Positions 10,254 through 51,997 of a stretch of DNA of 64,000 nt are shown piece after piece. Source of the DNA: an uncultured Candidatus Binatia bacterium (lineage in GTDB: Bacteria; Desulfobacterota; Binatia; Bin18); assembly GCA_965200965.1 (NCBI GenBank), contig OZ241744.1, positions 2,592,001 through 2,656,000 of the forward strand, in the 5' to 3' direction. The translations under genes were made by a program, and so were the position numbers. Numbering within the stretch: position 1 is the first letter of the stretch; every line of letters begins with the position of its first letter. The notes below the pieces were generated by a model that had not been told where the DNA came from, did not search any database, and saw nothing but the letters and a program-made list of their open reading frames with translations.

Positions 10254-11136
10254 TCCATTCCCCTCGTTTCGTCTTGCGCAGCCATGCCTGGGCGAAATCC
10301 ACATAGTGGGGATTGATTTCAACCCCAACGAACGGGATGGCCATGAGCTTTGCTACCACGCATTCCGATCCAGAACCGGAGAATGGAACCAAAAGCCGCC
10401 CGCTGCTGCCGTTGATGCGGGACATCAGCAGCCTTTTGGTAAGGCGCATTGGCTTCTGGGTTGCGTGCTTCCATGTCTCGTGGTCTTGGTGCTGCCTGCT
10501 TTCCTTCGGAGGGAAGGCATCCCCGCAATCCTCGCACCAAAACCATCTCTCCTTGTTCCCCGCGCCGCCGGCCAAGGCGGGAAACTTGAGGATGTCCCTT
10601 GGCAGTGCGCCGTTCCGATGGAGCCTGTAGGTCGTCTCTTTGCCACCGCCAAAGCGGGATTTGGTGCCTGCCCGCTTCTTGCCGTCCGCCTTGAGGACTC
10701 CAGGCGTGTAGGGCTCTCTGAGTTGATCGATCTCCAAGTCCGGCTTCTTGCGCCCATTGCGCCACAGGCACAGGATCGATTCATGGCTGCGCTGCCAAAA
10801 CTTGGAGGCTGCTACGGTCTTGTTCGTGTAGTGCCATGCCAGCCAGCGCTGCCGCTCCAACGGGAACCGGACGGCGATGTGGGCCAGTATCTCCGGGAAG
10901 CCGTAGACATAGGCGATGCCGTTGGGAGTTAAGAGCTCAATGGCCCTGCTCAGCCAGGTCATCGTCCACTCGACGTACTCCGACAGTGGCATGCTGTCCC
11001 TGGTCTCCCCAAAGTCCTTGCCGATGTTGTAAGGCGGATCGGCAATCACCACATCAAACGGCTGGTCAAGTGGCAAGGCGTTCAGCCAATGCACCACGTC
11101 GCCTTGCAGAATTCTCGACCCCTGACTTACCCTCAT
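10216..11136 (-). CDS. Beta-class N6-adenine/N4-cytosine DNA methyltransferase
   Basis: ADPPY motif IV N-terminal; HATQKP and PFSGSGS motif I C-terminal. Confidence 0.93.
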   Translation of the reverse strand: MRVSQGSRILQGDVVHWLNALPLDQPFDVVIADPPYNIGKDFGETRDSMPLSEYVEWTMTWLSRAIELLTPNGIAYVYGFPEILAHIAVRFPLERQRWLAWHYTNKTVAASKFWQRSHESILCLWRNGRKKPDLEIDQLREPYTPGVLKADGKKRAGTKSRFGGGKETTYRLHRNGALPRDILKFPALAGGAGNKERWFWCEDCGDAFPPKESRQHQDHETWKHATQKPMRLTKRLLMSRINGSSGRLLVPFSGSGSECVVAKLMAIPFVGVEINPHYVDFAQAWLRKTKRGEWNVEAEPPLFAGV

Positions 11137-36054: not shown

Positions 36055-37293
36055 ATGATTTCTGTACACGACGCAGTCACCCGGATTCTTGAGACCGTCA
36101 CCCCGCTGGCCGGGGAGCGGGTCAGCCTGTTCGAGGCCAGCGGGCGGGTCCTGGCCGAAACCATCGCCTCCGAGCGCGCCATCCCGCCTTTTGATAACTC
36201 GGCCATGGACGGCTATGCGGTGCGCTGGCAGGACATCCGTGAGGCCGGCGTTGACCAGCCGGCCGAGCTGCGCGTTTTTGAGGTCATCCAGGCCGGCCTT
36301 GTCCCCAACAAGACGGTGACGCCCGGCACGGCCAGCAAGATCATGACCGGCGCGGTGGTTCCGCCCGGTGCCGACACCGTCATCCGGCTTGAGGATACGC
36401 AGGAGCGTGACGGGCGGGTCCTGATTCAGCGGACAAACGCCGTGGGGGCCAACATCCGGGCCACCGGCGAGGATATCCGCCCGGGCCAGGTGATTTTGGA
36501 AAAAGGGCGGGTGCTGCGGCCGGCCGATATTGGGCTGCTGGCCTCTGTTGGGCGGAGTTTTGCGCTGGTGTGCCAACGCCCCCGGGTCGCTGTTCTCAGC
36601 ACCGGCAATGAGTTGGTTGAGGTCGATGGCACGCTGCGGCCGGGCCAGATTGTCAATTCCAACGCCTATACCCTGGCGGCCGCGGTCCGGGACGCCGGCG
36701 GGGTGCCGGTGCCGCTCGCCATCGCCCGGGACGCGCTCGAGGAGACCCGCGGCGCGCTGCACGAAGCCGTCCGTCACGATGTGGTGCTGTCTACCGGCGG
36801 CGTGTCGGTCGGCGATTTTGACTTTGTCAAAGCAGCGATGGACGAGTTGGGGATGCACCGTCTGTTCTGGCAGGTGGCCCAGCGGCCGGGCAAACCGCTG
36901 ACCTTCGGGCTGCTCAAAGAACGGCCCTGTTTTGGTCTGCCGGGCAACCCGGTTTCGGCCCTGGTGTGTTTTTATCTGTATGTCCGGCCCAGCCTGCGGC
37001 GGATGCTGGGACACACCCGGCTGTTCCCCCCCCTTGTGTCGGCCACCCTGAGTGAAGACATTCCCGTCGCCCCAAACCTGACCGAGTTTGTGCGTTGTCA
37101 GCTCAGCCAACACAAGGGGCACTACACGGCCCGTTCGACCGGCAGCCAAAGCTCGGGGGTGCTGAGTTCCCTGTCGCTTGGCCAGGGGCTCATCATCGGC
37201 CCGCGGGACCAGACCCTGCTCGCCAAGGGCGCGCAGGTCCAAGTGCTCGTGCTTGACGGGGAGATGTTCGCCGGCGAAACCGCGCCATTCTGA
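36055..37293 (+). CDS. moeA: Molybdopterin molybdenumtransferase
   Basis: PPFDNSAMDGYA, IMTGA, STGNEL, TGGVSVGDFD and GLPGNPVS. Confidence 0.97.
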   Translation: MISVHDAVTRILETVTPLAGERVSLFEASGRVLAETIASERAIPPFDNSAMDGYAVRWQDIREAGVDQPAELRVFEVIQAGLVPNKTVTPGTASKIMTGAVVPPGADTVIRLEDTQERDGRVLIQRTNAVGANIRATGEDIRPGQVILEKGRVLRPADIGLLASVGRSFALVCQRPRVAVLSTGNELVEVDGTLRPGQIVNSNAYTLAAAVRDAGGVPVPLAIARDALEETRGALHEAVRHDVVLSTGGVSVGDFDFVKAAMDELGMHRLFWQVAQRPGKPLTFGLLKERPCFGLPGNPVSALVCFYLYVRPSLRRMLGHTRLFPPLVSATLSEDIPVAPNLTEFVRCQLSQHKGHYTARSTGSQSSGVLSSLSLGQGLIIGPRDQTLLAKGAQVQVLVLDGEMFAGETAPF

Positions 37294-37343
37294 CGAAAAT
37301 CAGCATATCGGATGACGTTCCGCTCCTCCGACCTGATTCTTGT
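37294..37343. terminator. Imperfect long hairpin between convergent moeA and island end
   Basis: GAAAATCAG..TCGGA...TCCGA.CTGATTCT. Confidence 0.45.
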
Positions 37344-37352
37344 GCTTGCACC

Positions 37353-38132
37353 TCAGGCAGCCAGGCCGAGCTTCCGTTGCAGATCGTCTTGCGCATCAAG
37401 GGAGGCCACGGCGGTGTCAGCCACATTGGTTAATCGGGCGAGATCGAGCCGGGGGATTTCCTGCTGATCCTCAAACACGATCACCGACTCGAAAGAGAGC
37501 TTGTGCAGCAGGAAATGCGAGAGCATGATTGTTGTCAGCCGCGCTTTATCGCGGTTCGGAACGCCATAGAGAAACACGGGTCGCTCGCGCCTGCCCCAGA
37601 GACGATAATCCACACGGTAGCTGTTCCCATCCGGGATGTCCGGCGGAGCATGGTCCGCTTCAATGTCCTCTGCGTCAATCATGCTGAAAAGCGTGGCCTT
37701 CAGGTCTTCGTAAAACGTCGAAGCGACATGTGCCCGGCTCAGGAAGGTCAAATCGTACACCTTGGTCAAGGCTTGGCCGAACTGAAACACGGCCTCGGCA
37801 AGCTGCTCCGGCGCAACCTCAACAGAAAAGACGCCGGCCCGCTCCCGCATCCCGGCTTCCCGAACCACCTGCTCAAGGAGCGCGTCGCGAGTCCCCTCAA
37901 GGAAGGCGTCCACATCGTGCTCATAGCTGATGTGCATTAAGGTGTGGCCCTGATCGCTCAAGACCACCCCACCGGTCCGGGTCTCGGTCAAGTAGATCGG
38001 GTACTGGTCCCCGTCTGGAAAGGTGAACGGGGTGTCCAGCATGAGCGTGCCGTCATCGCGCTTATGAACAGCGACCTTGGCGCACAGGCGCTCGCACAGC
38101 GTCTTTTCCAGCAGCGGGAAGTCAAGCACCAT
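37353..38132 (-). CDS. DUF1828-like protein (C-terminal restriction-endonuclease-like fold possible)
   Basis: TPFTFPDGD..IYL...LSDQGHTL; TFYEDL; Y.VDY. Confidence 0.7.
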   Translation of the reverse strand: MVLDFPLLEKTLCERLCAKVAVHKRDDGTLMLDTPFTFPDGDQYPIYLTETRTGGVVLSDQGHTLMHISYEHDVDAFLEGTRDALLEQVVREAGMRERAGVFSVEVAPEQLAEAVFQFGQALTKVYDLTFLSRAHVASTFYEDLKATLFSMIDAEDIEADHAPPDIPDGNSYRVDYRLWGRRERPVFLYGVPNRDKARLTTIMLSHFLLHKLSFESVIVFEDQQEIPRLDLARLTNVADTAVASLDAQDDLQRKLGLAA

Positions 38133-38586
38133 AAAACAGGCCCTCTTGTTCATCTGGAACAGCGAGTCCCCGGATACCGCAATCCTGAATCAGACAGGCG
38201 AGCGCACCTTCCAGGGTCCGATACCGGTCCGTTTCCTCGGCTTGGCTGTCCTCCTTCTTGCCGGCGGCAATGGCCTCGGCTGTGGAGCGATGAATGTGGC
38301 AATGGTAGTGAATGCTGCCATGCCGATGGCTTGCGCCGTTGTAGCGGACGAGACTGAGCGGCCTCTCGCCCTTCTGAATCAAGGCGAGGCCACACGAAAA
38401 GTCCTTAGTGTCCTGCGTATTTTGCCGCTGATACACCCGATATCTGGTTCCGTGCTCTGTTTCAGCTTCATAATTTCGTTGCTTGTGGCCGGGTTTGTCA
38501 ACCCAGCGAGCGTTCGGATTTGTGACCCGCTTTGGAGTCGAACGCAGTTCGTTGAGCTCGTCGTCTGAAAAGAGTTGGTCAGTCAC
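38122..38586 (-). CDS. Hypothetical partner of the DUF1828-like gene (His-rich, DUF6978-like)
   Basis: YQRQN, FSCGL and LVRYNG..H.H...HCHIH; overlaps the downstream gene. Confidence 0.65.
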   Translation of the reverse strand: MTDQLFSDDELNELRSTPKRVTNPNARWVDKPGHKQRNYEAETEHGTRYRVYQRQNTQDTKDFSCGLALIQKGERPLSLVRYNGASHRHGSIHYHCHIHRSTAEAIAAGKKEDSQAEETDRYRTLEGALACLIQDCGIRGLAVPDEQEGLFYGA

Positions 38587-38626
38587 GGCCCCGTCTCCAC
38601 GACTTCCAGGTTCTCCATGTGAGGAT

Positions 38627-38667
38627 CAGTCCTGTAGGTCGGCTTAGCCGGCAGGCGTAAGCCGGCG
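38627..38667 (+). repeat. GTAG-type REP-like hairpin, copy 1
   Basis: CAGTCCT GTAG GTCGGCTTAGCC GGCA GGCGTAAGCCGGC; 35/38 identical to the 42483 copy. Confidence 0.88.
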
Positions 38668-38673
38668 GCTCCG

Positions 38674-39627
38674 CTACTCCCTGTGTTCGGCGGATGAGCA
38701 GGGGTTTCGGCAGAGATCGGTTGCCCTGGCCGCGGCCTGGGTCCAGTCCTGCACTTTTCCGAATATGTCTGCATCAACATTGTCGCAGAAATCGACAAGT
38801 CGGCAGCGGTCAAACAGTAAACCGGCGTCAACTGACGCGCTGTGCCAACGATTCCGGGGCAAAGCCTCTGAAACGAAGAACAGCCGCACGGGGGTAAGAA
38901 CGGGGGATGATTGCAACCATTTTTTGCAGAATGAATCGGGCTGAAGCTGAGTCAGCGTGTCCTTGTAGTTGGTCCCTGTCTTACATTGGCCGAAAGCAAT
39001 GAGCTTCCCTGGCAGGCCGTCTGTGAAGGATTTCCACACAACAACATCCAATTTTCCATCTCTCTCGTTCGGCCGGGCCTTGTCTCGGTTCACAAAACCA
39101 TCCCCCTCTTTTATTCGTTTGCAAAGATCGTCAACCTTTCCCTGGAAGTCTCTTCCCTCCGCCGCGGTGCCGAAGACAAGGCTCTCGGCGCGGGCACCAA
39201 GGTACTCCCGGGCAACCTCTGCGGCAAGTTCCTCAAAGAGCAATGTCCCATCAATGCCAGCGTGACGCCGGTTGTCTTTCATGTTCAGCCGGGTTGCCAG
39301 GAGCAGATACCTGTAGATGACGTGCTTGCGGTTGTCCGCCTTTTGGGGGGCGCGAAGCGTATAGCCCTCTTGTGTCATCTTGAAGGGATAGCCCTCCCCG
39401 CAACCTTCCTTGCGCTGCTCAATTTCCCGATACGCCTCTTCAGCACCTCGGTCTGTTTCTTCCTCTTCCGGCACGCCGCGAGAATAGTCGTTTTCATCAA
39501 GCCGGCCGAGAAGCCCGGAGAGGGCAGTCATCGACATGCTGTTGCGCTGCCAGGCAAGCAACTCGGCATAGTCGGCCAGTTCATGTTCGGGCGCGCCAGC
39601 GGACGGTTGTCCGGGCCACTTGAACAT
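38674..39627 (-). CDS. Putative Mrr-like PD-(D/E)XK nuclease
   Basis: LLFEEL...DGKLDVVVW...FGQCKTG (D..QxK); coupled to the ParB-like gene (TAATG). Confidence 0.65.
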   Translation of the reverse strand: MFKWPGQPSAGAPEHELADYAELLAWQRNSMSMTALSGLLGRLDENDYSRGVPEEEETDRGAEEAYREIEQRKEGCGEGYPFKMTQEGYTLRAPQKADNRKHVIYRYLLLATRLNMKDNRRHAGIDGTLLFEELAAEVAREYLGARAESLVFGTAAEGRDFQGKVDDLCKRIKEGDGFVNRDKARPNERDGKLDVVVWKSFTDGLPGKLIAFGQCKTGTNYKDTLTQLQPDSFCKKWLQSSPVLTPVRLFFVSEALPRNRWHSASVDAGLLFDRCRLVDFCDNVDADIFGKVQDWTQAAARATDLCRNPCSSAEHRE

Positions 39628-40733
39628 TACCCGTCCTCCGAGACACGCTTTTTCCTTCTGCGAGGTCTCTGTTTGCGTTCCATCTCCTCGTAGAGGTCAT
39701 TCGCAATATCCGCTACCGTACCGGCAACCCTGAGCAGTCCCTCTGAACCGTCATAGCCGGTGGAAAGCAGACCACGCGCCTGCTCAAGCGATTGCTTTGC
39801 CGCATACAGCGCCTCATTGAAAACGGTAGACGACGGACGGCTCTTCTCGTGGGCGGCTGCAAGGCTGCTGCCTCTGCGCAGGGCGGCAAGCGCCTCGTCA
39901 TTGGCTACGACTGCGTCGAGTTGCCGGAGATGCGGATTCTGTGTCTCAATGACAGGAGGCACCTCCTCCTTCTTGCTGCCGTACATCCAACGGCAAAGCT
40001 CGCGGAGTTCTTCCTTTTTCCCGGCAGGAACCGGCTCTGGGTCCTCTTCAGTCTCCGGCCCTAAGCCAAGAAAGGCGCTGATGCCCTCGTAGCCGATCCC
40101 CGTGTACATATGGGAAAATGAAAAATGGTTTCTCCAGCGGTCTTTGCGGCTGAATACCTTCAGCTGTTCGGCTTGTTCAATGACCATCAAGCCACGGAAC
40201 AGCCTATGGACGGTCCTGTGGGTGTCACCAATCTGTGTTGCGATATCTTCGAGTGCAGCACCGAAATTTCTATGCACATCCGCGATGTATTGGGACTTGG
40301 CGTAGCTGCTCCATTTGGCCGGTCCATTAACATGTTTGAAGCCGAGATAGCGCCAAGTGTCTTCGCGGGTACCTGATATTGTGGGAAGCTCTCTCAGCGC
40401 TTCCCTGACATCTTTCGTGACGGGAGGAACGTCCGCTCTCAAGTCCTTGGCAATGGTGGGTTCGAGGAGAACTTTGACCGCGGCGAGACGACGGTTTCCC
40501 TCAATAACAATGTTTTTCCCCTTCTCCTGCGCCACGATCAGGGGTTCGTGGCGAAAGAATCCGCTGGCTGCGATCGACAGGACCAACTCGTTCACGTCCA
40601 TCGCGTCCCATAGAATCCGTATCACGTCTGCCTCTGTCGAGTTGCTGGTCAGATCAAACTCACGAAGCCGAGGGTTCTTGAGATCGAACACCAGTTCCGA
40701 GACGTTCATGGGGGTGATGTGCTCGGTCTTCAT
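39627..40733 (-). CDS. ParB/Srx N-terminal-domain protein
   Basis: FDLKNPRL, VIEGNRRLAAVK and HVNGPAKW; coupled to the MTase (ATGA). Confidence 0.8.
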   Translation of the reverse strand: MKTEHITPMNVSELVFDLKNPRLREFDLTSNSTEADVIRILWDAMDVNELVLSIAASGFFRHEPLIVAQEKGKNIVIEGNRRLAAVKVLLEPTIAKDLRADVPPVTKDVREALRELPTISGTREDTWRYLGFKHVNGPAKWSSYAKSQYIADVHRNFGAALEDIATQIGDTHRTVHRLFRGLMVIEQAEQLKVFSRKDRWRNHFSFSHMYTGIGYEGISAFLGLGPETEEDPEPVPAGKKEELRELCRWMYGSKKEEVPPVIETQNPHLRQLDAVVANDEALAALRRGSSLAAAHEKSRPSSTVFNEALYAAKQSLEQARGLLSTGYDGSEGLLRVAGTVADIANDLYEEMERKQRPRRRKKRVSEDG

Positions 40734-41605
40734 GGCATCTTCTTCCCTAAGTCGGTGCGGTCTGGCGGGCGGACATGCGGTGGCAGAATCACCAACTCCT
40801 GCGCGCGTTTCTTGTGCTGAAGGCTGTACCGAAGCGCAACATGTGAGAAGTCACAGGTCCGGTACAGGGCACGAATGAACGGGGCATCATCGTAGGACAT
40901 GATCCATTTCAGGCTGACCCGTCGCAGCATGGAGCGCGCAAGCTTTTGATGGTCGTCCCGGTTGGTATAGGAGTTCCGGTACAGGCGATTGCCGCCATTG
41001 GCGTAGTAGGGCGGGTCCAGATAGGCGAAGACCCGCCGGCGCGCCCGGCCACGCGGGAGAGCGTTGACCAGAAATGTGCGGGCGTCCTCGTTCGTGATAT
41101 GAATATGGTCACGTTGCAAGGCGATGGCTCGCACGCGCGCCGCAAGCGTCTCCCGATAAAACCGCGCGTCAAGCCGCCATTTCCCCGCTTGCGCATAGCC
41201 GCCAATCGGAGCGGAGCCGAAGAGGATGCCAGAGCGATTGCAGCGGTTCAGGTAGAACACAGAGAAGCCCACGGCAAAGGGCGTCCTGGCGTCGGCGCGT
41301 GTGCAGATATCCTGTTGCTTCCGCCACTCCGCCATGCTGAGTGGAACAGACAGGATCGCCTCGACGAAGCGTTCCGGCTCACCAAGAACCGCCTGCCAGA
41401 ACGCCGTGATACGCGGGTCTGCGTCGTTCAGACGCAGTCCAGAGACAATCCCCTCCCCCAACAGGCGGAGCGCGGCCCCTGCGCCCCCGGCAAACGGCTC
41501 ATAGTAAACGCAGCCGGACAGGTCGTTTGCCGCAATGACCTGCGCGAGGAACGGAGCCAGCGCGGCTTTGCCGCCTGGGTATCTGAGCGGGCTGGTGAGC
41601 GTCAT
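40730..41605 (-). CDS. Dam-like (D12 class, alpha) DNA adenine methyltransferase
   Basis: SPLRYPGGK, EPFAGGA, YLNR and YLDPPY; AGGAG SD. Confidence 0.95.
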   Translation of the reverse strand: MTLTSPLRYPGGKAALAPFLAQVIAANDLSGCVYYEPFAGGAGAALRLLGEGIVSGLRLNDADPRITAFWQAVLGEPERFVEAILSVPLSMAEWRKQQDICTRADARTPFAVGFSVFYLNRCNRSGILFGSAPIGGYAQAGKWRLDARFYRETLAARVRAIALQRDHIHITNEDARTFLVNALPRGRARRRVFAYLDPPYYANGGNRLYRNSYTNRDDHQKLARSMLRRVSLKWIMSYDDAPFIRALYRTCDFSHVALRYSLQHKKRAQELVILPPHVRPPDRTDLGKKMP

Positions 41606-41674
41606 GCTCCTCCTGTCTTCCTGCGCTGTCCATCACAGTCAGCAGAAAAAAGAACGCCCTCCGTGCAACGGCCC

Positions 41675-41708
41675 GGAGGGCGGATGAGCGAAGCGTCATC
41701 CGCCCTGC
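41675..41708 (+). repeat. GGAG-type REP-like hairpin, related copy
   Basis: GGAG GGCGGATGAGC GAA GCGTCATCCGCC; same architecture as the 38627 and 42483 copies. Confidence 0.8.
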
Positions 41709-41712
41709 TCCC

Positions 41713-41862
41713 TTACTTCTTTCTGCTGCTTGTCATCTTCGGCGGCTTAGGAGGCGGTTTTTCGGGGGACAGCTTGCTCTTCGTCGGTTGATATCCTTCC
41801 CTAAAGTGTCGCCTGGGTTGAGGGGTGTTTTGTCTCTGGTCGGGTTTGTCATGCTTACTCAT
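41713..41862 (-). CDS. 49-aa basic Pro-rich peptide, not in the ORF track
   Basis: MSKHDKPDQRQNTPQPRRHFREGYQPTKSKLSPEKPPPKPPKMTSSRKK; AGGAGG SD; overlaps the stop of the upstream gene. Confidence 0.7.
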   Translation of the reverse strand: MSKHDKPDQRQNTPQPRRHFREGYQPTKSKLSPEKPPPKPPKMTSSRKK

Positions 41863-42466
41863 GTGTTTCCTCCTGAGGGGTATAGGCCCAAAACTCTATC
41901 GTGCTGATCTCTCCAGCGGCGATGAGTACGCCTCTCTCATTGGTCGAAGACCAAGTACCAGTATCGTCAATATCATAGACCCACTGAATATACATATCGC
42001 GCTCGCCAGGAGTGGAAGAGGTGAAAGATTGCGAACCGTAGAATCCGGCGAGACAAGTCCCATCTCTGAGTGTCACACGAACCCATTGTTCTTCCCTACC
42101 GCCGAACTTCCAGTCCCAGGCGGTCGGTGTGGCATGAACAGGGTACAGACCGAACCAATTGAGGAGGCGGCGAACAAGGCCTTTCTGGATGGTGATCCCG
42201 AGGAACAGGCCGAAAACGACAGGGCCGACGAAGACCAGGCCGAACCAAGCCCACATTGATTGCTGTAGCAGTGCGGGATCAACAAAAGGGAGAACCAGAG
42301 CACCATAGACGACAGAAACAGTCAGGTAGGAAAGAAGCGCGGCGGTGTTGCTGTCGGACGGCCTTCTTGTGGTGATGAACTGCGACCTGACAAACAGGGC
42401 AATAAAGCCAGGGACGATGCAGGGCAGAATAAGGTAGAGACTATTGAGGGATAGCAATTTAGGCAC
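41855..42466 (-). CDS. DUF6338-like membrane protein
   Basis: IVPGFI, 3 TMs, PTAWDWKF, WVRVTL.DG and G.LI...EI..IEF. Confidence 0.75.
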   Translation of the reverse strand: MPKLLSLNSLYLILPCIVPGFIALFVRSQFITTRRPSDSNTAALLSYLTVSVVYGALVLPFVDPALLQQSMWAWFGLVFVGPVVFGLFLGITIQKGLVRRLLNWFGLYPVHATPTAWDWKFGGREEQWVRVTLRDGTCLAGFYGSQSFTSSTPGERDMYIQWVYDIDDTGTWSSTNERGVLIAAGEISTIEFWAYTPQEETHE

Positions 42467-42572
42467 GGGTCAATATCCCTTCCAGTCCTGTAGGTCGGCG
42501 TAGCCGCCGGGCGTAAGCCGACACAATGAAAAGACTCCCAGCCTGCTGATAGCTACCGGAGATGCACGGCAT
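42459..42572 (-). pseudogene. Possible truncated gene start (MPCISG...) running into the REP-like hairpin
   Basis: ATG overlaps the 3' end of the upstream ORF; after ~16 codons it enters the hairpin and ends at 37 aa. Confidence 0.4.
42483..42522 (+). repeat. GTAG-type REP-like hairpin, copy 2
   Basis: CAGTCCT GTAG GTCGGCGTAGCC GCCG GGCGTAAGCCGAC. Confidence 0.88.
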
Positions 42573-42825
42573 GAGAGAAATATCCCAGGTCTACCGGCTG
42601 GGTGGTGATTGTCTGGACCGAGAAAAGCCCGTCCTTGTAGAAAGTTCTGCCGGTCAGGACCGCATCCCGGGCGGTGGTGTAGATGCCGATGACCTCTTCA
42701 TGGCGCATGAGGGCGTGCCGATTCTCATATTTTCTCAAGCTCGGCAGGAGGCGTTTGAAGGCGTGATAGTTCTTTTCGATTTCCTCCAGCCGAGCGGCGT
42801 TGTCCGGGACTTCTTTGTTGCCCAT
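42553..42825 (-). CDS. Small hypothetical protein (DUF5678-like)
   Basis: NY.AF..LLP.L....HAL......G.Y....DA...G; CAGGAGG SD. Confidence 0.65.
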   Translation of the reverse strand: MGNKEVPDNAARLEEIEKNYHAFKRLLPSLRKYENRHALMRHEEVIGIYTTARDAVLTGRTFYKDGLFSVQTITTQPVDLGYFSHAVHLR

Positions 42826-42893
42826 TGTGTCCCTCCTGTTCATTCTGTTCGTCTCTCCTCAAAAAATACCCCAATCCGATCGCCGGCGTCAAT

Positions 42894-45800
42894 TCAGAGG
42901 CGGATGTCGGCGTCGGGGTGGCCGGCGGCCAGGGCGTTGAGCCAGGCGAGGCACAGCTCGCGCGAGCGATAGCGGCCCCAGGTGGCGGTTTCCTGGCGTT
43001 CGACGATGGGGAAGGTGGCGTAGATGTAGCGCACATCGTTGCGGTCGGTGAGGCCGTAGAGGTGGAAGAAGACGGCGTCGAGCTTGGCCCGCAGGTGCAG
43101 CCGGCGGTCTTCGTCCCACACGAACGGCGGCTTGACCCGCCCGGCGGCATCGACATGGCCGAGGTCGCGGGCAAACGGGGCCATGTCGTGGGCGGTGTAG
43201 GTCAGCTCCAGCACAGCTTCCCGCACAATCTCGCCGGCCGTCTTGGTACCGAAACGAACGGTGCCGTAGGTTGCGGGTGGCATGACGGGGAGCTGTTCAA
43301 CGATGTAGTAATTTAAACTGGTGCTATGAATTTTCTGACGGGTGATGAAGTCGAAGATCGTCGAGTTGAAGTTTGCTATCAGCAGCCATTCCGTGCGTTC
43401 GGAAGTTTCCGGGTCCGCTATGAGGAGCGGGGCTTTGTTCCCCAAACCGACAAAAGGGACTGCGGCAGCGATCATTGTTCAAGCGTCGCTGGCGCGGGCG
43501 ATATCCCTAAATGTGACTGTCCATCCCGATCGGTCCGGCAACTTCACTTTGTCGGCGAGAACCCAATACTGTGGTATAGGCATGAAATTCGGGTCAGCCT
43601 TCTTATCCGGTGCAATCCCCCCGCTCAGGGCCGGATTGTGAAGGTTTTGCTCGTTTACTTTGACCGACGCGGCTCGGTGGTCAAACTGATGAATCATCCG
43701 ACCGACATACAGCGGCACCCACTCCCCCGACGGGCTACGAAAGCGGTTGCCGCCGACCGGATACGCGCCTTCTTGCTCCTCCAGTTCTTCGAGCGTGCGG
43801 AACAGGTGGGAGTCGTTGGTCATGTCAAACATGCGGGTGTATTTTACCGGCCACGCCTTGAGCTCCCGGCCCGCTGAACGGTCTACCAGGACGGGCAGAC
43901 GGCGGTAGATGGCCGTGGTCAGTTCGGCGTCCCGGCGGGTGCGGAAGATGGGCGCTGTGCCGGTGTTGGGGTTGACGCTGGCGAAGTCCTCCGAAGCCAG
44001 CGGAAAGCGACGGGAGGCGTCGTTCAGTTCTGACACGTCCTGGAGGAAGAACGCGCACTGGGCCGGAGCGTCGGACGGCGAGCGTCCGGTGACAAAGGCG
44101 CAGAACTTGAACCGCGAGTCCACATCCGGGAAGAAGGGCGGCGCGGTGTAGCGCGTGCGGCGGTTCTCAAAATCGTACAGCGTACGCAGCCGGCCTTCGG
44201 TTGCGACTGAACGGAAGAAGGGGGCCGCGGTCTTGTCTGAGGCAATACCGGACGGGACGAGCAGGCCGACGAGGCCGTGTGGCTTGACCAGGGCCAGGGC
44301 GCGTTCGACAAACAGCGCGTACAGGTTCACATCGCCCCTGGACAGCAGGGGGTAGTCGCCGCCGGTCCGGGCCATGCGGGCGGTAGACTCGGCCCGGGCG
44401 TTGGCCCGCTCAAACGCGCCGGCCAGGGGGTCGCCGTCGTCCTGCAAGGCGGCGATCATGCGCTTGCGGTCGTCGGCGCGCTGGGCGTGGGCAATGGCCG
44501 GCCGGCGGGCCGCAAACCATTCGACCTGCTGGAGCTTGATGCGGTCCCAGGGCGGGTTGCCGATCACGGCGTCAAAGCCGCCCTGGCGTTCGGGCCGCTG
44601 CCAGTCTGACCACACCCCGGGAAAGGCGACCTGCCAGTGCAGAAATCCCTCTTCGGCGATGAGGTCCCGCGCGCGTGCCAGGAGGGCGGCAAAGCTGGCG
44701 CTGGCTGGGTGATCGTCCCGCGGCTCGGTGGCTTCAAGGGCGATCTGGATCGGGTCGCCAAGCCGGCCCTCAGTAAAGGCCCGGACCGCGGCCCGCTCGT
44801 CCTTGGCCTTCAGGTTCAGCCAGTCCAGGGCGTGGCTCAGGGACAGAAAGGATGCGAGCGGGGCGGTGCTGGCCTGCATGTCGTCGAAGATGTGGGCGGA
44901 GCGGTGGGCCTCGGCAATCTCGGCGTCGGTCAGGGCCTCAATCTCCTGCATCTGGGCGGCGGCCTGGGTGGCCTCGTGAAGTTTGGGGGTCAGGTACAGG
45001 GCACTCTCGCCGGTCATCACCCGGTCAATGCCCTGGGCCACCCAGCAGCCGAACAGGCTGTTGCCGCAGCGCAGATGATGGTCCAGGAAGCTGAGCGGTG
45101 CGCCGACGGTAAAGGTGTGCAGCCACAGCGACACCTTGGCCAACTCGACCGCCATCGGGTTTTTGTCTACCCCGTAGACGCAACGCTTGAGCACCATGCG
45201 GCGGACAATATGGCGGTCGTCCAGTTGCTCAGGGTCAATGCTCCAGCCGTGTTCCTCGGCGTTGGCGGTGATGCGCTGGCGAATGGCCTCAATGCGGTCG
45301 CCGAGCCGGCCCTCTTCAGACGGATCGTCCTCCTCGTCGGCCATGGCCGCAATCACCCGGTCGGCCAGATAGTCCACGAGGCTGACCAGAAAATGCCCGG
45401 AGCCCATCGCCGGGTCACATACCTTGAGCTCCAACAACTGCTCTGCGCTGCGGCCCCTGACCAGCGGCTCAAGCGTCTGGGTCAGGATCAGGTTGACGAG
45501 CGTATCCGGGGTGTAATAGCTGCCCGAGCCTTTGCGGGCGAACACATTGGGCCGGACGAGAATCTGCCCGCCGTCGCGCACAATCTCGTGCTCAAGCAGC
45601 CGCTCATAGATCGAGCCGAGCTGCTGCACACTCAGGTCACGGTAGTTGATGTAACGCCGGCCTTTCACCTTCCGGTCGAGGGCACGTTCACTCCTTTCAA
45701 ACGACAGGGTGTCAATCACATCGGCCATAAGCTGATCGCCCAGCCGGATACGGGCCAGCAGCGGCGTGTGCTCCCGGTCGAACAGCCCGCCGTTATAGGC

Positions 45801-46865
45801 CGGCAGGCCGATTGAGGCGTCGCCCCGGTCAAGGGCCCGGCACAGGTCGTCAAGGGCTGACCAGTAGCGGGCCGCGCTGGCGGAGAAAGTATCGTCCCGG
45901 TCCTTGCGCCGGCGCACATCTTCGCGCACCCGCTCGCGCAGGCCGTAGTCGTCGTAGCGCGTGTCGCGCACCGGCAGCAGGCTGCGGTCTTCGGCGTACA
46001 GAATGAACAGCAGGCGGTAGAGCAGGGTCAGGGCGGCGTCGCGCACTTCAGACAGGGGCGTGTCTGGCGCGGCGGCGTCGGCAATGGCCCGGGCCAGCTT
46101 GGGAAAAACCTGCTTGAAGACCAGCTCGGACAGGTCGGCGGCCACCCGCTCTTCATAGAACCGTCCCTGGTCAAGCGCGCGCTGGTGCAGGCTGGGCCGG
46201 TCCGCGGTGGCCACAAAAGCGTCCCGCCCGAAGAAGAGGGCAAACAGCTTGAGGCAGTGCCGGTCGGGGCGGAGCGCCGCGGTCAGGTCAAGCTCAAAGA
46301 ACTGCTCGGACACCGACCGCGCGCCGGCATAATACAGCCGCCATTTTGCGCCGTTGGTGAGGATGCCCCAGCGGAGCCGGCCGTCGGTCAGGTCGTCTGC
46401 CCGCCGCAGATAGCGCAGCATCTGGGTTGACGGCGCGGTCCGCTCGCCGGCCCGGTCCGAGCGGCGGTCGAGGGGCCGTTGCCAGCGCTTGGCCTCCAGC
46501 ACCGCCAAGCCGAATTGATAGCGCTGCCATTCCTGGCCGAAGCCGTTGGCCCGGTCCTTGGCCGCGGCGTCGGCGAACAGCAGGCCGTCGGGCACATCGT
46601 CCCGGCCCTGGGCGCTGAGGTTCTGCTGTCGCAGGCTGGCCGTCCAGCCCAGCCGTTCCAGCACCGGCCAGATCAGATCGTCTTCGGTCTGGCTCTCGTT
46701 GGGGCTCTGGCCGGTCGGAAAGCGCTCAACGACCGCCTGCAACTCGCCGGCCAGGGCGTCGAGCCGGGCGTCCTCAAACGCCTGCCAGTCATCGAGCCGG
46801 GCCACCGACCCGGTGAGAAAATCCCAGGCGAACAGGCTCCCCCGAACAATGCCTTCAATACTCAT
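42894..46865 (-). pseudogene. Type IIG (Eco57I-like) fused REase-MTase, split by in-frame TGA at 43479-43481
   Basis: PDGLLF..LEAK nuclease, GSYYTP, DPAMGSGHFL and GNPPW; ORF 42894-43475 continues in the same frame (GCT TGA ACA ATG). Confidence 0.85.
45665..45696. repeat. Partial family 1 element, in frame in the type IIG gene
   Basis: TCACCTTCCGGTCGA-GGGCACGTTCACTCCTT vs TCGCCTTCCGGTCGATCTGATGACACGTTCACGCCTT; encodes RSERALDRKV. Confidence 0.7.
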
Positions 46866-46870
46866 CCGCC

Positions 46871-48061
46871 TCAAGATACCGCCAGGCAGGTTTTTGCCTT
46901 GGGAAAACTCTTGACCGCTTCAAAGAAGGCCGTGTCTGTGATCTCTGTGGCCCACTCAAGCCGGAGACGAATGCGGTATTTTCCTGTCTCGCTTTTCTCG
47001 GCAGCAACAGCGCGCAGGCTAAGGAGCTGATTCACATCCCGGATGAGGGCTTTAGCAGGACTCTTGAGCTGAAAATAGTAACGGTCAACCGCATTGATCA
47101 GTTGGTCAAGCTCTAAGGAATCTCGCTCCAACAGCACTTCAAGAATTTTGAGTTGCCTCTTCGCCAGGACTCGTTTTCTGTCGCTTTCCAGGTGCTTGAA
47201 GAGATCGTGCATGACATTCCGGTACAGGGCTTTGGAGACATTGCGCCTGATTTCCCTGAAAAGTCGCTGGCATTGCCGGGCGATCCCTCTCAGGCCAAAG
47301 CGCAGGAAGGGGGTCAGATCGTGTGCCCTTTCTCTGGCCTCTTTGAGAGTTGCAAGATAGGTGTCTTTCTCGTCGTAGTAATAGTTTGACATGGCTATAA
47401 AAAGCTTGTCACGCCGGCCGGCCCGCTGAAGCATCAACGCCTCAACTGCCCGTGCTGTCCGACCATTTCCGTCAAGGAACGGATGCAGAGCGGCAAAGTG
47501 GTAATGCAGAGCGAGCGCCTGGATAAGAAGATCATACTCTGGAAATTCTTTCTCCACGGCTTTCATAAGACTCGCAAACACTCGCTCACACTCTGCACCT
47601 CCTTCTACTCCCCTATGCCGGAGTCGGCCAAACGTCACATTCTGGTCTTTTCCCCGGAGCACCCCTGGCGGGCAGTGATCATCATCCGCTCCAGTGACGA
47701 TCCGCTCGTGGATAGCCCGGATCAGATTGACGCTGATCGGCCTGTCGTCCGGGAGTGAGGCGATCCACTTATACGTCTTGACCGCAGCATGGGCCTGTCG
47801 CTGAGACCGGGTAAGTAATTGCTCTGGAGTTTCCTGCAATGCCTCTTCCAACTCATCTTCGGTAAAATCGGCCCCCTCAATACGCGAAGTCCCCGCAACT
47901 TCCCGCTTGAGTTGAATCGCCTGAAGTTCCTCCACCCAGCCGCGTTGGAGCGGCATTGTTCGCAGAGAAAGAACGCTGGCCTTGGCGTCTGTCAGAACAT
48001 CTACCAGCGCGCCGGCGTCGTAACACAGCCAGCGCGTCGGCCGCGTGTACAGAATAGCCAT
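46871..48061 (-). CDS. Fic family protein (class II) with probable C-terminal wHTH
   Basis: HPFLDGNGRTAR catalytic motif; TSRIEG inhibitory-helix motif. Confidence 0.93.
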   Translation of the reverse strand: MAILYTRPTRWLCYDAGALVDVLTDAKASVLSLRTMPLQRGWVEELQAIQLKREVAGTSRIEGADFTEDELEEALQETPEQLLTRSQRQAHAAVKTYKWIASLPDDRPISVNLIRAIHERIVTGADDDHCPPGVLRGKDQNVTFGRLRHRGVEGGAECERVFASLMKAVEKEFPEYDLLIQALALHYHFAALHPFLDGNGRTARAVEALMLQRAGRRDKLFIAMSNYYYDEKDTYLATLKEARERAHDLTPFLRFGLRGIARQCQRLFREIRRNVSKALYRNVMHDLFKHLESDRKRVLAKRQLKILEVLLERDSLELDQLINAVDRYYFQLKSPAKALIRDVNQLLSLRAVAAEKSETGKYRIRLRLEWATEITDTAFFEAVKSFPKAKTCLAVS

Positions 48062-48782: not shown

Positions 48783-48865
48783 GCCGCGTGTCCTTTGTGT
48801 GTTTGCCCGCCGTCCGTCCAGTCTATACAATACGGTCAGTCTGGCGAGACAAGGACAACACCACG

Positions 48866-51800
48866 ATGAAACCGGTTGCTGAGAATGTCAAGTTCCCCGA
48901 GGTCGAGCTGGAAGTCCTCCAATTCTGGGACGAGGCCAAGGTTTTTGAAAACACGCTGAAAAAAACCCGGGATCAGCAGCCGTTCATTTTTTATGACGGC
49001 CCGCCGTTTGCCACCGGCCTGCCGCACTATGGCCATCTGCTGGCCGGCACGATCAAAGACATCATTCCCCGCTTCTGGACCATGCGTGGCCGCTATGTGG
49101 ACCGGCGTTTCGGCTGGGACTGTCACGGCCTGCCGGTCGAAATGGAAATTGAGCAAGCCCTGGATTTGCACGGCAAAAGCGAGATTGAGCGCTTTGGGGT
49201 AGCCAGGTTTAACGCCGAGTGCCGCAAAATTGTGCTGCGCTATACCGAAGAGTGGGAAAAGACCGTGCGCCGGACCGGGCGCTGGGTTGATTTTCGGAAC
49301 GACTACCGGACGATGGACCTGTCGTTCATGGAAACGGTATGGTGGGCGCTCCGACAGATGTGGGACAAAGACCTGGTCTACGAGGGCTCGAAGGTCCTGC
49401 CCTTCTCAACCCGGCTGGGAACCGTGCTGTCAAACTTTGAGGCCAACCTGAACTACAAAGATGTCCAGGACCCGACCGTCACCGTCCGTTTTGCCGCGGA
49501 CGACGAAGAAAAGACATCGTTCCTCGCCTGGACCACCACGCCGTGGACCCTGCCCAGCAATCTGGCCCTGGCTGTCGGCCCGGACATTGCGTATGTCAAG
49601 GTCCGAGACCATGAGGACGGCACCCATTACATTCTGGCCGAGGCGCGGCTCGCAACCTATTTCCCCAAGCCCGGGACCTGCACCCTTGTCCAGCGCTATA
49701 CCGGGCGGGACTTGGTCGGCCGGGGCTATCGACCCGTATTCCCGTATTTTGCCGAGCACAAACAGCGCGCCGCCTTCCGTCTGATCGCTGCCGATTATGT
49801 CACCACCGAAGACGGAACCGGCATTGTCCACATTGCCCCGGCTTTTGGCGAGGACGACTTCCTGGCCTGTCAGCAGGCCGGCATTGCGTTGGTCAATCCG
49901 GTTGACGACGAGGGAAAGTTTACCGCCCAAGTCCCTGACTTCGCCGGCCTGCACGTCAAAGAGGCCGACGCCAGGATCATCGCCCATCTCAAACGCGACA
50001 AGCAGCTCGTCCACCAGGGCACAATTTTTCACAGCTACCCCTACTGCTGGCGGAGCGACACCCCGCTCATCTACCGGGCGGTGAATACCTGGTTTGTCCG
50101 GGTAGAAGCCTTCCGCGATCGGCTGGTGGCCAATAATCAGCGCACGACCTGGGTGCCAGAGCACCTGCGCGATGGCCGCTTTGGCAAGTGGCTGGAGAAC
50201 GCCCGCGACTGGGCAATCAGCCGCAACCGCTATTGGGGCACGCCGCTGCCGATCTGGAAGAGCGAGGACGGCAGCGAAGTCGTGTGTATCGGCAGCGTTG
50301 AGGAGTTGGCCCAAAGAGCCGGCGTGCGGGTCACTGACCTGCACCGCGAGTATGTCGATGCTCTGAGCTTTCCGTCCACAACCGGGGGCCTGATGCGCCG
50401 TGTCCCCCAGGTGTTTGACTGCTGGTTCGAAAGCGGCTCCATGCCCTACGCCCAGTTGCACTACCCGTTTGACAATGCCGAGCGTTTTTCGCGCACCTTT
50501 CCCGCCGACTTCATTGCCGAGGGGCTCGATCAGACCCGGGGCTGGTTCTATACCCTGATGGTGGTGGCCTCAGCCCTGTTTGACAAACCAGCCTTCCACA
50601 ACGTTGTCGTCAACGGCCTGGTCCTGGCCGAAGACGGCAAAAAAATGAGCAAACGGCTCAAAAACTATCCCGAACCTGACGAGATCATGGCCCAACACGG
50701 CGCGGACGCCATGCGGCTCTATCTCATCAACTCGCCCCTGGTCCGGGCTGAGGAGCTGCGGTTCAGCGAGCACGGCGTGCGCGATACCGTGCGCCGGCTG
50801 CTGCTGCCGTGGTGGAACGCATATAAGTTTTTTGTCACCTACGCCCTGGTTGACGGCTGGAAGCCCGAGCGCGTCCCGGCTGAAGCGTCCCCGAACATCC
50901 TGGACCGCTGGATCGTGTCCCGGCAGCAAACCCTGATCCGGCGCGTCAACGCCGAGATGGAAGCCTACCGGCTGTATACGGTGGTGCCGGCCCTGCTCGA
51001 CTTTCTGAACGAGCTGACCAACTGGTATGTGCGCCTGGGCCGCCGCCGCTTCTGGGCCGGTACCCCGGCGGACAAAAACTTCGCCTGCCGCAGCCTGCAC
51101 CAGGTCTTAGTAACCTTCTCAAAGCTGATGGCCCCGTTTACGCCGTTTCTGGCCGATGCGGTCTACCGCAACCTGAGCACCCTCCAGCCGGAGCGGGCCG
51201 CGGCCAGCGTCCATCTTGAAGACTTCCCCAGCTATGACCCCGCCGCGGTTGATGCCGGCCTTGAGGACGCGGTGGCCCGGATGCAGCGCGTTATCCTGCT
51301 GGGCCGCAGCCGGCGCAATGAGCGCAAGGTCAAGGTCCGCATCCCCCTCCAAACGCTCACCGTTCTCCATCGCCAGGAGTCCGTGCTGAATGACTTGAAA
51401 CCGCTCGAAGGCTATATCCGTGAAGAACTGAACGTCAAAACCCTTGCCTACAGTACAGCCGAAGACGAAAAAGTAGAGTTGCGCGCCAAACCCAACCCGC
51501 AGTTGCTCGGCCCGCGTTTCGGCAGGGCCTTCGGCCAGGTCCGCGAGCAACTGGCGACCCTCAGCCGGGAGCAGATGTTGCGCCTGGAAGCCGGCCAGTC
51601 CTTGCAGTTCAGCGGCCACGCCTTTCAGCCGGATGAGGTCCACATCCTGCGCCAAGCCAAGGATGGCGTCCCCGATGTCCACTCCGATCGGTTTATCTCT
51701 ATTGAGTTTCCGTGCGAGTTGAACGACGAGCTGCTCAGCGAGGGTCTGGCCCGCGAAGTGGTCCACCTGATTCAACACATGCGCAAAGAGGCCGGCTATC

Positions 51801-51997
51801 AGGTCGAAGACCGTATTGCCGTGACCTACCAGGCTGCTCCGCAACTGGCAAGCGCTATTGGTCGCCACCTGAGCTATATCCAGCAGGAAACCCTGGCTCG
51901 GTCGCTCGCCCGGGCGCAGCCGACCGGCGACCGGGTTGAAAGTGGGGATATCGACGGGGCCGCAATTACGCTTGGAGTCCAGCGCGAAGAGGAGTGA
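48866..51997 (+). CDS. ileS: Isoleucine--tRNA ligase, type 2 (archaeal/eukaryote-like)
   Basis: DGPPFATGLPHYGH, WTTTPWTLP, DWAISRNRYWG and KMSKR; long C-terminus without Zn finger. Confidence 0.97.
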   Translation: MKPVAENVKFPEVELEVLQFWDEAKVFENTLKKTRDQQPFIFYDGPPFATGLPHYGHLLAGTIKDIIPRFWTMRGRYVDRRFGWDCHGLPVEMEIEQALDLHGKSEIERFGVARFNAECRKIVLRYTEEWEKTVRRTGRWVDFRNDYRTMDLSFMETVWWALRQMWDKDLVYEGSKVLPFSTRLGTVLSNFEANLNYKDVQDPTVTVRFAADDEEKTSFLAWTTTPWTLPSNLALAVGPDIAYVKVRDHEDGTHYILAEARLATYFPKPGTCTLVQRYTGRDLVGRGYRPVFPYFAEHKQRAAFRLIAADYVTTEDGTGIVHIAPAFGEDDFLACQQAGIALVNPVDDEGKFTAQVPDFAGLHVKEADARIIAHLKRDKQLVHQGTIFHSYPYCWRSDTPLIYRAVNTWFVRVEAFRDRLVANNQRTTWVPEHLRDGRFGKWLENARDWAISRNRYWGTPLPIWKSEDGSEVVCIGSVEELAQRAGVRVTDLHREYVDALSFPSTTGGLMRRVPQVFDCWFESGSMPYAQLHYPFDNAERFSRTFPADFIAEGLDQTRGWFYTLMVVASALFDKPAFHNVVVNGLVLAEDGKKMSKRLKNYPEPDEIMAQHGADAMRLYLINSPLVRAEELRFSEHGVRDTVRRLLLPWWNAYKFFVTYALVDGWKPERVPAEASPNILDRWIVSRQQTLIRRVNAEMEAYRLYTVVPALLDFLNELTNWYVRLGRRRFWAGTPADKNFACRSLHQVLVTFSKLMAPFTPFLADAVYRNLSTLQPERAAASVHLEDFPSYDPAAVDAGLEDAVARMQRVILLGRSRRNERKVKVRIPLQTLTVLHRQESVLNDLKPLEGYIREELNVKTLAYSTAEDEKVELRAKPNPQLLGPRFGRAFGQVREQLATLSREQMLRLEAGQSLQFSGHAFQPDEVHILRQAKDGVPDVHSDRFISIEFPCELNDELLSEGLAREVVHLIQHMRKEAGYQVEDRIAVTYQAAPQLASAIGRHLSYIQQETLARSLARAQPTGDRVESGDIDGAAITLGVQREEE

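Follow-up and report, generated by a model that had tools for sequence, protein, structure and literature searches.

A REP-punctuated array of defence-type modules downstream of a Type IIG restriction-modification gene in an uncultured Candidatus Binatia bacterium

Gene content of the moeA–ileS slot

We analysed a 64,000-nucleotide stretch (the window) of contig OZ241744.1 from an uncultured Candidatus Binatia bacterium, in which small defence-type modules alternate with repetitive extragenic palindromic (REP) sequences in a variable slot between moeA and an ileS-like gene. An initial annotation of this DNA had proposed a REP-delimited, integron-like route for capturing defence genes and had missed that the array follows a Type IIG restriction-modification (R-M) gene as its downstream tail. 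The window genome (G000) is a single contig of 3.62 Mb and is 99% complete. It was compared with seven congeners (G001–G007), in five of which contigs span moeA to ileS, and with conspecific strains in six read runs (X1, X3, X6, X7, X11, and X12) of the 18 listed, using contigs only. Several read runs containing window DNA are labelled as sponge metagenome.

The left border of the slot is moeA (36055–37293, plus strand; Pfam MoeA domains), which has an 80–90% identical orthologue in all seven congeners. The conserved right border is the ileS-like gene (48788–51997, plus strand; named from its translation), which was aligned in G002 and G004–G007. Inside the right border lie a Fic-family gene (46871–48061, minus strand), identified by domain searches, and the Type IIG gene (42894–46874, minus strand). 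The latter is one open reading frame (ORF) of 1319 aa in G007 and 1362 aa in G006, and an in-frame TGA at 43479–43481 splits the G000 copy. All module genes between 37353 and 42843 lie on the minus strand, as initially annotated. The first is a 96-aa ORF of no known family (42553–42843) that also occurs in G007; its earlier label, DUF5678-like, is unconfirmed, with no Pfam match even at an E value of 5. It is followed by the gene for a DUF6338 membrane protein (41855–42466; PF19865, E = 2e-35) and by a gene for a Lys/Pro-rich peptide of 49 aa, read from its translation and termed the GYQP peptide (41713–41862), which overlaps the DUF6338 stop, is kept in G006 without DUF6338 and is present in two copies each in G006 and G007.

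The next module opens with a D12-class adenine methyltransferase (MTase) gene (40730–41605; PF02086) that matches PD-Lambda-5_B over its full length (E = 4e-95). The adjoining gene encodes a ParB-like protein (39627–40733), the N-terminus of which matches PD-Lambda-5_A at residues 9–167 (E = 1e-18) and, weakly, TIGR00180 (E = 7e-6). The third ORF is a putative nuclease (38674–39627), for which Atlas leads of 0.80–0.82 point to restriction endonuclease clusters; Pfam, PADLOC, and NCBIfam gave no match, and its structure model was unusable (pLDDT 34). Within the original Dam–ParB–nuclease label, the MTase assignment stood and the ParB assignment has a weak N-terminal match, while the nuclease assignment remains a lead (Atlas 0.82). 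The last module comprises a His-rich protein gene (38122–38586), without a Pfam match and DUF6978-like as a lead only (Atlas 0.91–0.94, to clusters with 12–25% DUF6978 and low recognition value), and a DUF1828 gene (37353–38153; Pfam and PADLOC PDC-M24B matches), which occupies a different array rank in G006 and persists as a 3' remnant in G007. Pfam agreed with the DUF1828, Dam-like D12 MTase, and DUF6338 labels, and the defence-type character of the modules was supported by PADLOC matches to PD-Lambda-5_B, in part to PD-Lambda-5_A, and to PDC-M24B. The window also contains comEC (Competence domain, 3294–4160) and a further N6/N4 methyltransferase gene (10288–11055).

The content of the slot differs between congeners and between strains, in line with the variability that had been anticipated. 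G004 carries one dnd-associated MTase gene and no REP, and G002 carries approximately 14 kb with dndB, dndC- and dndD-like, HNH, and helicase genes, again with no REP. An internal fragment of the Type IIG gene and one REP are found in G005, whereas G006 and G007 contain full Type IIG genes and other modules. As the slots of G002 and G004 lack REPs and the others bear them, the slot is a hotspot with or without REPs, of an ordinary defence kind. In the G007 slot (L021, oriented 3590–3715), three segments starting with GTTTCAATCC show CRISPR-like spacing and are probably the remnant of a decayed mini-array.

A REPIN–RAYT repeat family at the module borders

Four REPs punctuate the array: a degenerate short-loop arm with four mismatches (37307–37336, minus strand), two long-loop arms (38634–38666 and 42490–42522, plus strand), and a short-loop arm with a foot-like end on both sides (41675–41704, plus strand). 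They were identified by a pattern scan and by folding, and all four fold as hairpins (z −2.1 to −3.6). The scan used a two-arm pattern with up to three mismatches over the whole genome, with three block shuffles as control; it gave 42 matches in the genome and 1, 0, and 0 in the shuffles. By a crude gene call, 36 of 37 REP sites in G000 lie at gene boundaries. The hairpins initially noted at each module border are thus real, but they had been described as co-oriented; the one placed at 37294 is a REP of the same family on the minus strand, so only three of the four share an orientation. The reported identity of 35/38 between 38627–38664 and 42483–42520, including the CAGTCCT flank, was confirmed. 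This flank is a weak sign of local copying, and many long-loop arms of G006 and G000 have similar AG(C/T)C ends in front of them.

Exact REP copies numbered 112 in G006, 75 in G005, 5 in G007, 4 in G002, and 1 in G004. Those of G005 and G006 are mostly inverted doublets, and several doublets occur in G000 as well. A REP-associated tyrosine transposase (RAYT) of 171 aa, flanked by the same REP, is present in G006 and G001 (NF047646, 187–190 bits; cut-off 80), which bears out the RAYT type proposed for these REPs. A cognate enzyme flanked by this REP, which the initial annotation had suggested looking for, was therefore found in two congeners but not in G000, where neither PF01797 nor tblastn with the G006 RAYT (best E = 0.5) detected one. 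Given the RAYT flanked by the same REP in congeners and the inverted doublets, the slot repeats are REP doublets forming hairpins (REPINs), which in G000 have mostly decayed to singlets; REP singlets are read as defunct remnants by Bertels and Rainey (2011; PMC3116915). The slot repeat is a new member of the known RAYT–REPIN family. Sites that hold a singlet in G000 carry doublets or the opposite arm in G006 and G007, and the G007 site orthologous to 37307–37336 is an inverted doublet. These comparisons suggest that orientation reflects whichever arm survived, without attC-like polarity.

The initial annotation had also pointed to a CT directly before the foot as a RAYT cleavage site. It is present in 2/4 slot copies but in only 6/42 copies in G000 and 1/54 in G006. 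In Escherichia coli, TnpA-REP cuts at a CT at a distance and performs strand transfer in vitro (PMC3479197), and since the CT may be distant from the foot, CT adjacency says little in either direction. The absence of integron hallmarks was confirmed: no RYYYAAC..GTTRRRY core pair (spacing 25–130) was detected on either strand within 37200–43000, and no integron integrase was found in the genome, the better of its only two tyrosine recombinases scoring 78 bits against a cut-off of 265.

Many REPINs of G006 (L156, L157, L161, L162, L169, and L170) sit within an element of approximately 125–130 bp with CTAGAGC-like inverted ends, which resembles a REPIN-carrying miniature inverted-repeat transposable element; one copy has a flanking duplication of approximately 26 bp. 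A REP cluster at 2.994 Mb was considered as a lost RAYT locus and rejected, as the matching gene there is a Type ISP/IIG paralogue and synteny places the site near 2.447 Mb.

Recombination joints and homology-anchored stacking

Duplication of the 3' end of the Type IIG gene was observed in two congeners. In G007 this end occurs twice (330 bp, 96%), as does the GYQP peptide gene; in G006 the end occurs twice (151 bp, 85%) together with two copies of the REPIN plus the peptide gene (260 bp, 87%). In G007, the orphan Type IIG end meets the peptide copy at a joint of three shared nucleotides without a REP, the sole joint readable on both parents. The orphan end of G006 matches its neighbour at 108/128 positions and G000 at 108/128; it is no closer to its neighbour than to G000, as allele displacement predicts. 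In G000, the last codons of the nuclease-like ORF are a 3'-end remnant of the GYQP peptide gene (38670–38727, minus strand), which aligns locally to the G007 peptide end with a score of 57, against at most 36 in 1000 shuffles. It is therefore probably at this remnant, at least 44 nt from the REP, that the Dam–ParB–nuclease block has its far joint.

Strain joints were taken from those listed for the six runs; the novel parts of contigs are unread, and rare forms drop out of contigs. In X11, read depth over 42907–43143 was 94 compared with 52–59 on the flanks, and one contig leads from a 42907 copy through approximately 1.56 kb of other DNA to 41796, while another departs at 42546. In X7, a 42907 copy is joined via approximately 1.28 kb to 41173, and a departure occurs at 41841; X12 departs at 41844 and 42546. 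X3 and X6 retain the whole array, carry a 37-bp duplication at 42520–42556, and have the variable region of the Type IIG gene (43305–43747) swapped. A CRISPR-like reading of this duplication, with 35 nt between copies, was rejected because the genome and all loci compared each contain only one copy of this sequence. The breakpoints 41796 and 41841 fall within the GYQP peptide gene, which is likely, judging from its copies and breaks, a second recombination anchor.

Module gain or loss exactly at the REPs, as initially expected, was not what these comparisons showed. In relatives and strains, most resolved breakpoints fall within a gene (Type IIG, Dam, DUF1828, or peptide), and their distances to a REP range from 24 to more than 700 nt; the gene-scale strain breaks are 24, 92, 137, 385, and 502 nt from the nearest REP. 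Excision joints between 38627 and 42483 had also been proposed, and no REP-to-REP joint was among those listed in the six runs, a weak check given that contigs cannot show rare circles.

We estimate a probability of roughly 60% that homology-anchored recombination stacks incoming alleles behind the Type IIG gene, with REPINs riding along and sometimes serving as joints. Incoming DNA would pair by homology with either the peptide gene or the conserved Type IIG gene, and short microhomology would join its far end, that is, by homology-facilitated illegitimate recombination (HFIR); alternatively, a recircularised fragment would integrate through a single crossover. Either route would leave an orphan 3' end and shift older modules toward moeA, and double crossovers and deletions would later tidy the array. 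The DNA may arrive by transformation; comEC and dprA, both widespread genes, were found in the genome. REPINs would arrive or persist as passengers behind gene 3' ends, only sometimes supplying a joint, which would fit the enrichment of REPs at the R-M loci of G000, where RAYT is missing. A displacement model has been proposed for Vibrio type VI secretion system (T6SS) and Rhs arrays (PMC5361080); single crossovers leave duplications of 109–950 bp and HFIR uses microhomologies of 3–10 bp (PMC3240628); and R-M inserts with long duplications, as well as swaps of Type IIG target recognition domains (TRDs), have been described (Furuta et al., 2010; PMC2853133). The slot is probably not a new integron-like capture machine: the REP-delimited route first proposed finds no RAYT in G000, and the doublet remnants are symmetrical, without polarity.

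Several observations weigh against stacking anchored by homology with REPINs as passengers. No orphan Type IIG end was found in G000 itself, HFIR is rare in experiments (PMC5361080, PMC3240628), and some strain joints, such as that at 41173, may be edges of diverged alleles. The G007 orphan end matches its neighbour at 318/330 positions and G000 at 309/330, and this greater closeness to the neighbour is also explained by local duplication. An origin of the orphan ends in local tandem duplication followed by ordinary allelic replacement and deletion, with REPINs inserted later into intergenic space that had newly opened or kept as transcript-end hairpins, would also suit the piece of approximately 60 bp at 42486–42545, which holds REP 42490 and no gene and is missing from G007, where both adjoining genes are retained. 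REP-bearing tandem paralogue arrays exist elsewhere, and REPIN numbers follow available space (10.1101/2021.07.10.451892). We nevertheless regard this origin as unlikely, as the G006 orphan is equally similar to G000 and to its neighbour and the DNA between the two Type IIG ends differs in every genome and strain seen, so that incoming DNA is needed.

The remaining points against the homology-anchored scheme concern the REPs. The alignment with G007 breaks down at 38630 and 42486, each 4 nt beyond a REP foot, and at 41697 inside a REP. Of the 22 REP clusters, ten have one of the 47 MTase matches no more than 3 kb away, compared with 2.7 expected (0/2000 simulations). Against G007, with 1.94 Mb of its contig C1 (53% of the G007 genome) covered, 8/19 REP sites lie within 60 bp of the edge of an indel of at least 300 bp, compared with 14% of random intergenic sites (P about 0.003, overstated because clustered sites are non-independent and one site was miscounted). 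At genome position 3.002–3.005 Mb, a REP–module–REP arrangement faces a single collapsed REP, and a G007-specific insert of an AIPR gene plus a degenerate REPIN, absent in G000 and G002–G006, begins 1 nt from the foot. At three other REP-edge inserts, the sites differ in all outgroups or are non-syntenic. The REP site at 1.917 Mb was rejected as an indel edge, since it shows a simple REPIN insertion accompanied by a 10-bp duplication. A second short repeat family, with many copies in G002, G003, and G005, is located close to the opposite end of the AIPR insert (L061:6646–6690, in G007).

Other counts speak against a REP-driven route. Only 14/229 gene-scale indels are edged by a nearby REP. The genome contains 52 short local direct repeats, of which 8 are in contact with a REP and 3 have one at each copy. 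Among 26 MTase matches examined, 22 have an indel within 5 kb, and 17 of these 22 have no REP within 5 kb. In the RAYT-bearing G006, 60 of 62 ORFs flanking REPs (32 sites, in 20 stretches chosen from those listed for their REP content and not at random) were scanned at E = 1e-15; 35 were named, including no DNA methyltransferase and one Uma2, and most were metabolic or envelope genes. One REP-dense G006 stretch consists of plain REPIN insertions between core genes. The initial annotation had held that REPs scattered evenly and breakpoints off the REPs would speak against its model; REPs are not evenly scattered in G000, but the breakpoints of relatives are mostly off REPs.

This evidence bears on two accounts that place the REPs at the centre. 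They might be the main joints as passive sequence, direct copies of 35–65 bp acting as short homology to delete or integrate the DNA between them with no need for RAYT. The 35/38 identity of the 38627 and 42483 copies, the enrichment at indel edges, and the 3.002–3.005 Mb arrangement are in favour, as is a private REPIN variant of G006 that has two of its four exact G006 copies, and its only G005 copy, at this locus. We consider this account doubtful, since the duplicated unit usually reaches into the peptide or Type IIG gene, REP-to-REP joints are missing among those listed, and the 14/229 indels are so few.

Even less probable, in our judgement, is the model of the initial annotation, in which RAYT cuts REP feet and moves whole modules, the array being a fossil here or imported from RAYT-bearing relatives. 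The cognate RAYT of G006 and G001, joints lying 1–4 nt beyond the foot (at 38630, at 42486, and at several sites elsewhere), the polarised AIPR plus REPIN insertion in G007, and the in vitro cleavage at CT and strand transfer by E. coli TnpA-REP (PMC3479197) are consistent with it. However, the 99%-complete G000 has no RAYT although strain-level change continues, there is no polarity, and the CT is not conserved. Moreover, plain REPIN insertion or excision leaves foot-proximal joints too, and the G006 REPINs lie mostly between ordinary genes. A hybrid, in which a RAYT nick at a REP foot gives the second, non-homologous joint for DNA that is homology-anchored at the restriction gene, also appears to us rather unlikely. 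If true, defence-gene capture would be steered toward R-M hotspots by REPIN–RAYT systems, this genus would preserve the history of such capture in its REP-punctuated arrays, and REPINs would have a long-sought host benefit.

Duplicated 3' or 5' ends also occur at other R-M loci. A second likely Type IIG locus (G000:C1:1744000–1755000, G007:C1:200000–211000) has tandem FRG/TPR-like paralogues, named from sequence, and REPINs, and in G007 it also has an orphan 3' end of 146 bp. The 3' part of a Type III mod gene is duplicated in G007 (1.4 kb, 96.6%), with a REP after each copy (G000:C1:3178000–3187000, G007:C1:1400500–1409500). G000 contains about 47 N6/N4 methyltransferase-domain matches in 3.6 Mb and many near-identical direct repeats of 100–400 bp around inserts of 1–4 kb, with no REP or transposase. 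More than ten paralogues of approximately 800 aa with mosaic similarity lie in tandem at G000:C1:271000–305000, and giant repeat proteins of up to 2996 aa with shared blocks are clustered at G000:C1:2850000–2870000. A CRISPR-like array at G000:C1:3365834–3372600 has a REP about 1 kb downstream and is also kept in G007.

Relation to known systems

If stacking behind the restriction gene is correct, the integron-like layout is explained without new machinery, by the displacement known from Rhs and T6SS loci. Orphan R-M ends could then mark new defence modules, and the measured enrichment of REPs near R-M genes offers a lead to the function of REPINs for their host. No paper on orphan Type IIG 3' ends used in stacking was found in the literature listings or in the available parts of PMC2853133 and PMC5361080. 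The listings likewise yielded none linking RAYT to cassette capture and none covering four of the subjects REP, RAYT, defense island, horizontal gene transfer, and recombination hotspot. Type IIG-anchored stacking with orphan ends would thus be a variant of known displacement that was not found in print.

The array resembles integrons and clusters of attC sites lacking integron integrases (CALINs) in being a one-strand series of one- to three-gene defence-type modules with hairpins at their borders. It differs in having no attC cores, no IntI, hairpins of mixed orientation, and joints that are often inside genes. With REPIN–RAYT systems (PMC3116915, PMC3479197, and, for TnpA-REP subclasses, PMC6006769) it shares GTAG-footed imperfect hairpins, inverted doublets, an extragenic location, a single-copy RAYT flanked by REPs, and singlets as decayed remnants. 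Here, in contrast, RAYT is lost in G000, the surviving copies are concentrated at R-M loci, each doublet has two arm types, and the CT next to the foot is not conserved. The MTase and the gene next to it recall PD-lambda-5 (10.1101/2022.05.12.491691), with a full-length match to PD-Lambda-5_B and an N-terminal match to PD-Lambda-5_A, but the latter covers residues 9–167 only, a third gene follows, and the module is not prophage-borne as far as seen.

Long direct repeats that border R-M-linked inserts in the absence of a mobile element are a feature shared with the R-M insertions with long target duplications described in PMC2853133, and the swapped C-terminal variable region of the Type IIG gene is similar to the allelic exchange of Type IIG TRDs described there. 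The duplicated piece at this locus, however, is the 3' end of the R-M gene itself, and the inserts lie downstream of that gene. A further likeness is to the displacement arrays of Vibrio T6SS effector–immunity genes and Rhs C-termini (PMC5361080), which likewise have a conserved anchor gene, orphan 3' ends, older genes shifted downstream, and an integron-like look with no integrase. What sets the moeA–ileS array apart from these is that a Type IIG R-M gene, together with a gene for a 49-aa peptide, serves as the anchor, that its cargo consists of unrelated defence-type modules instead of cognate immunity genes, and that REPINs are interspersed among them.

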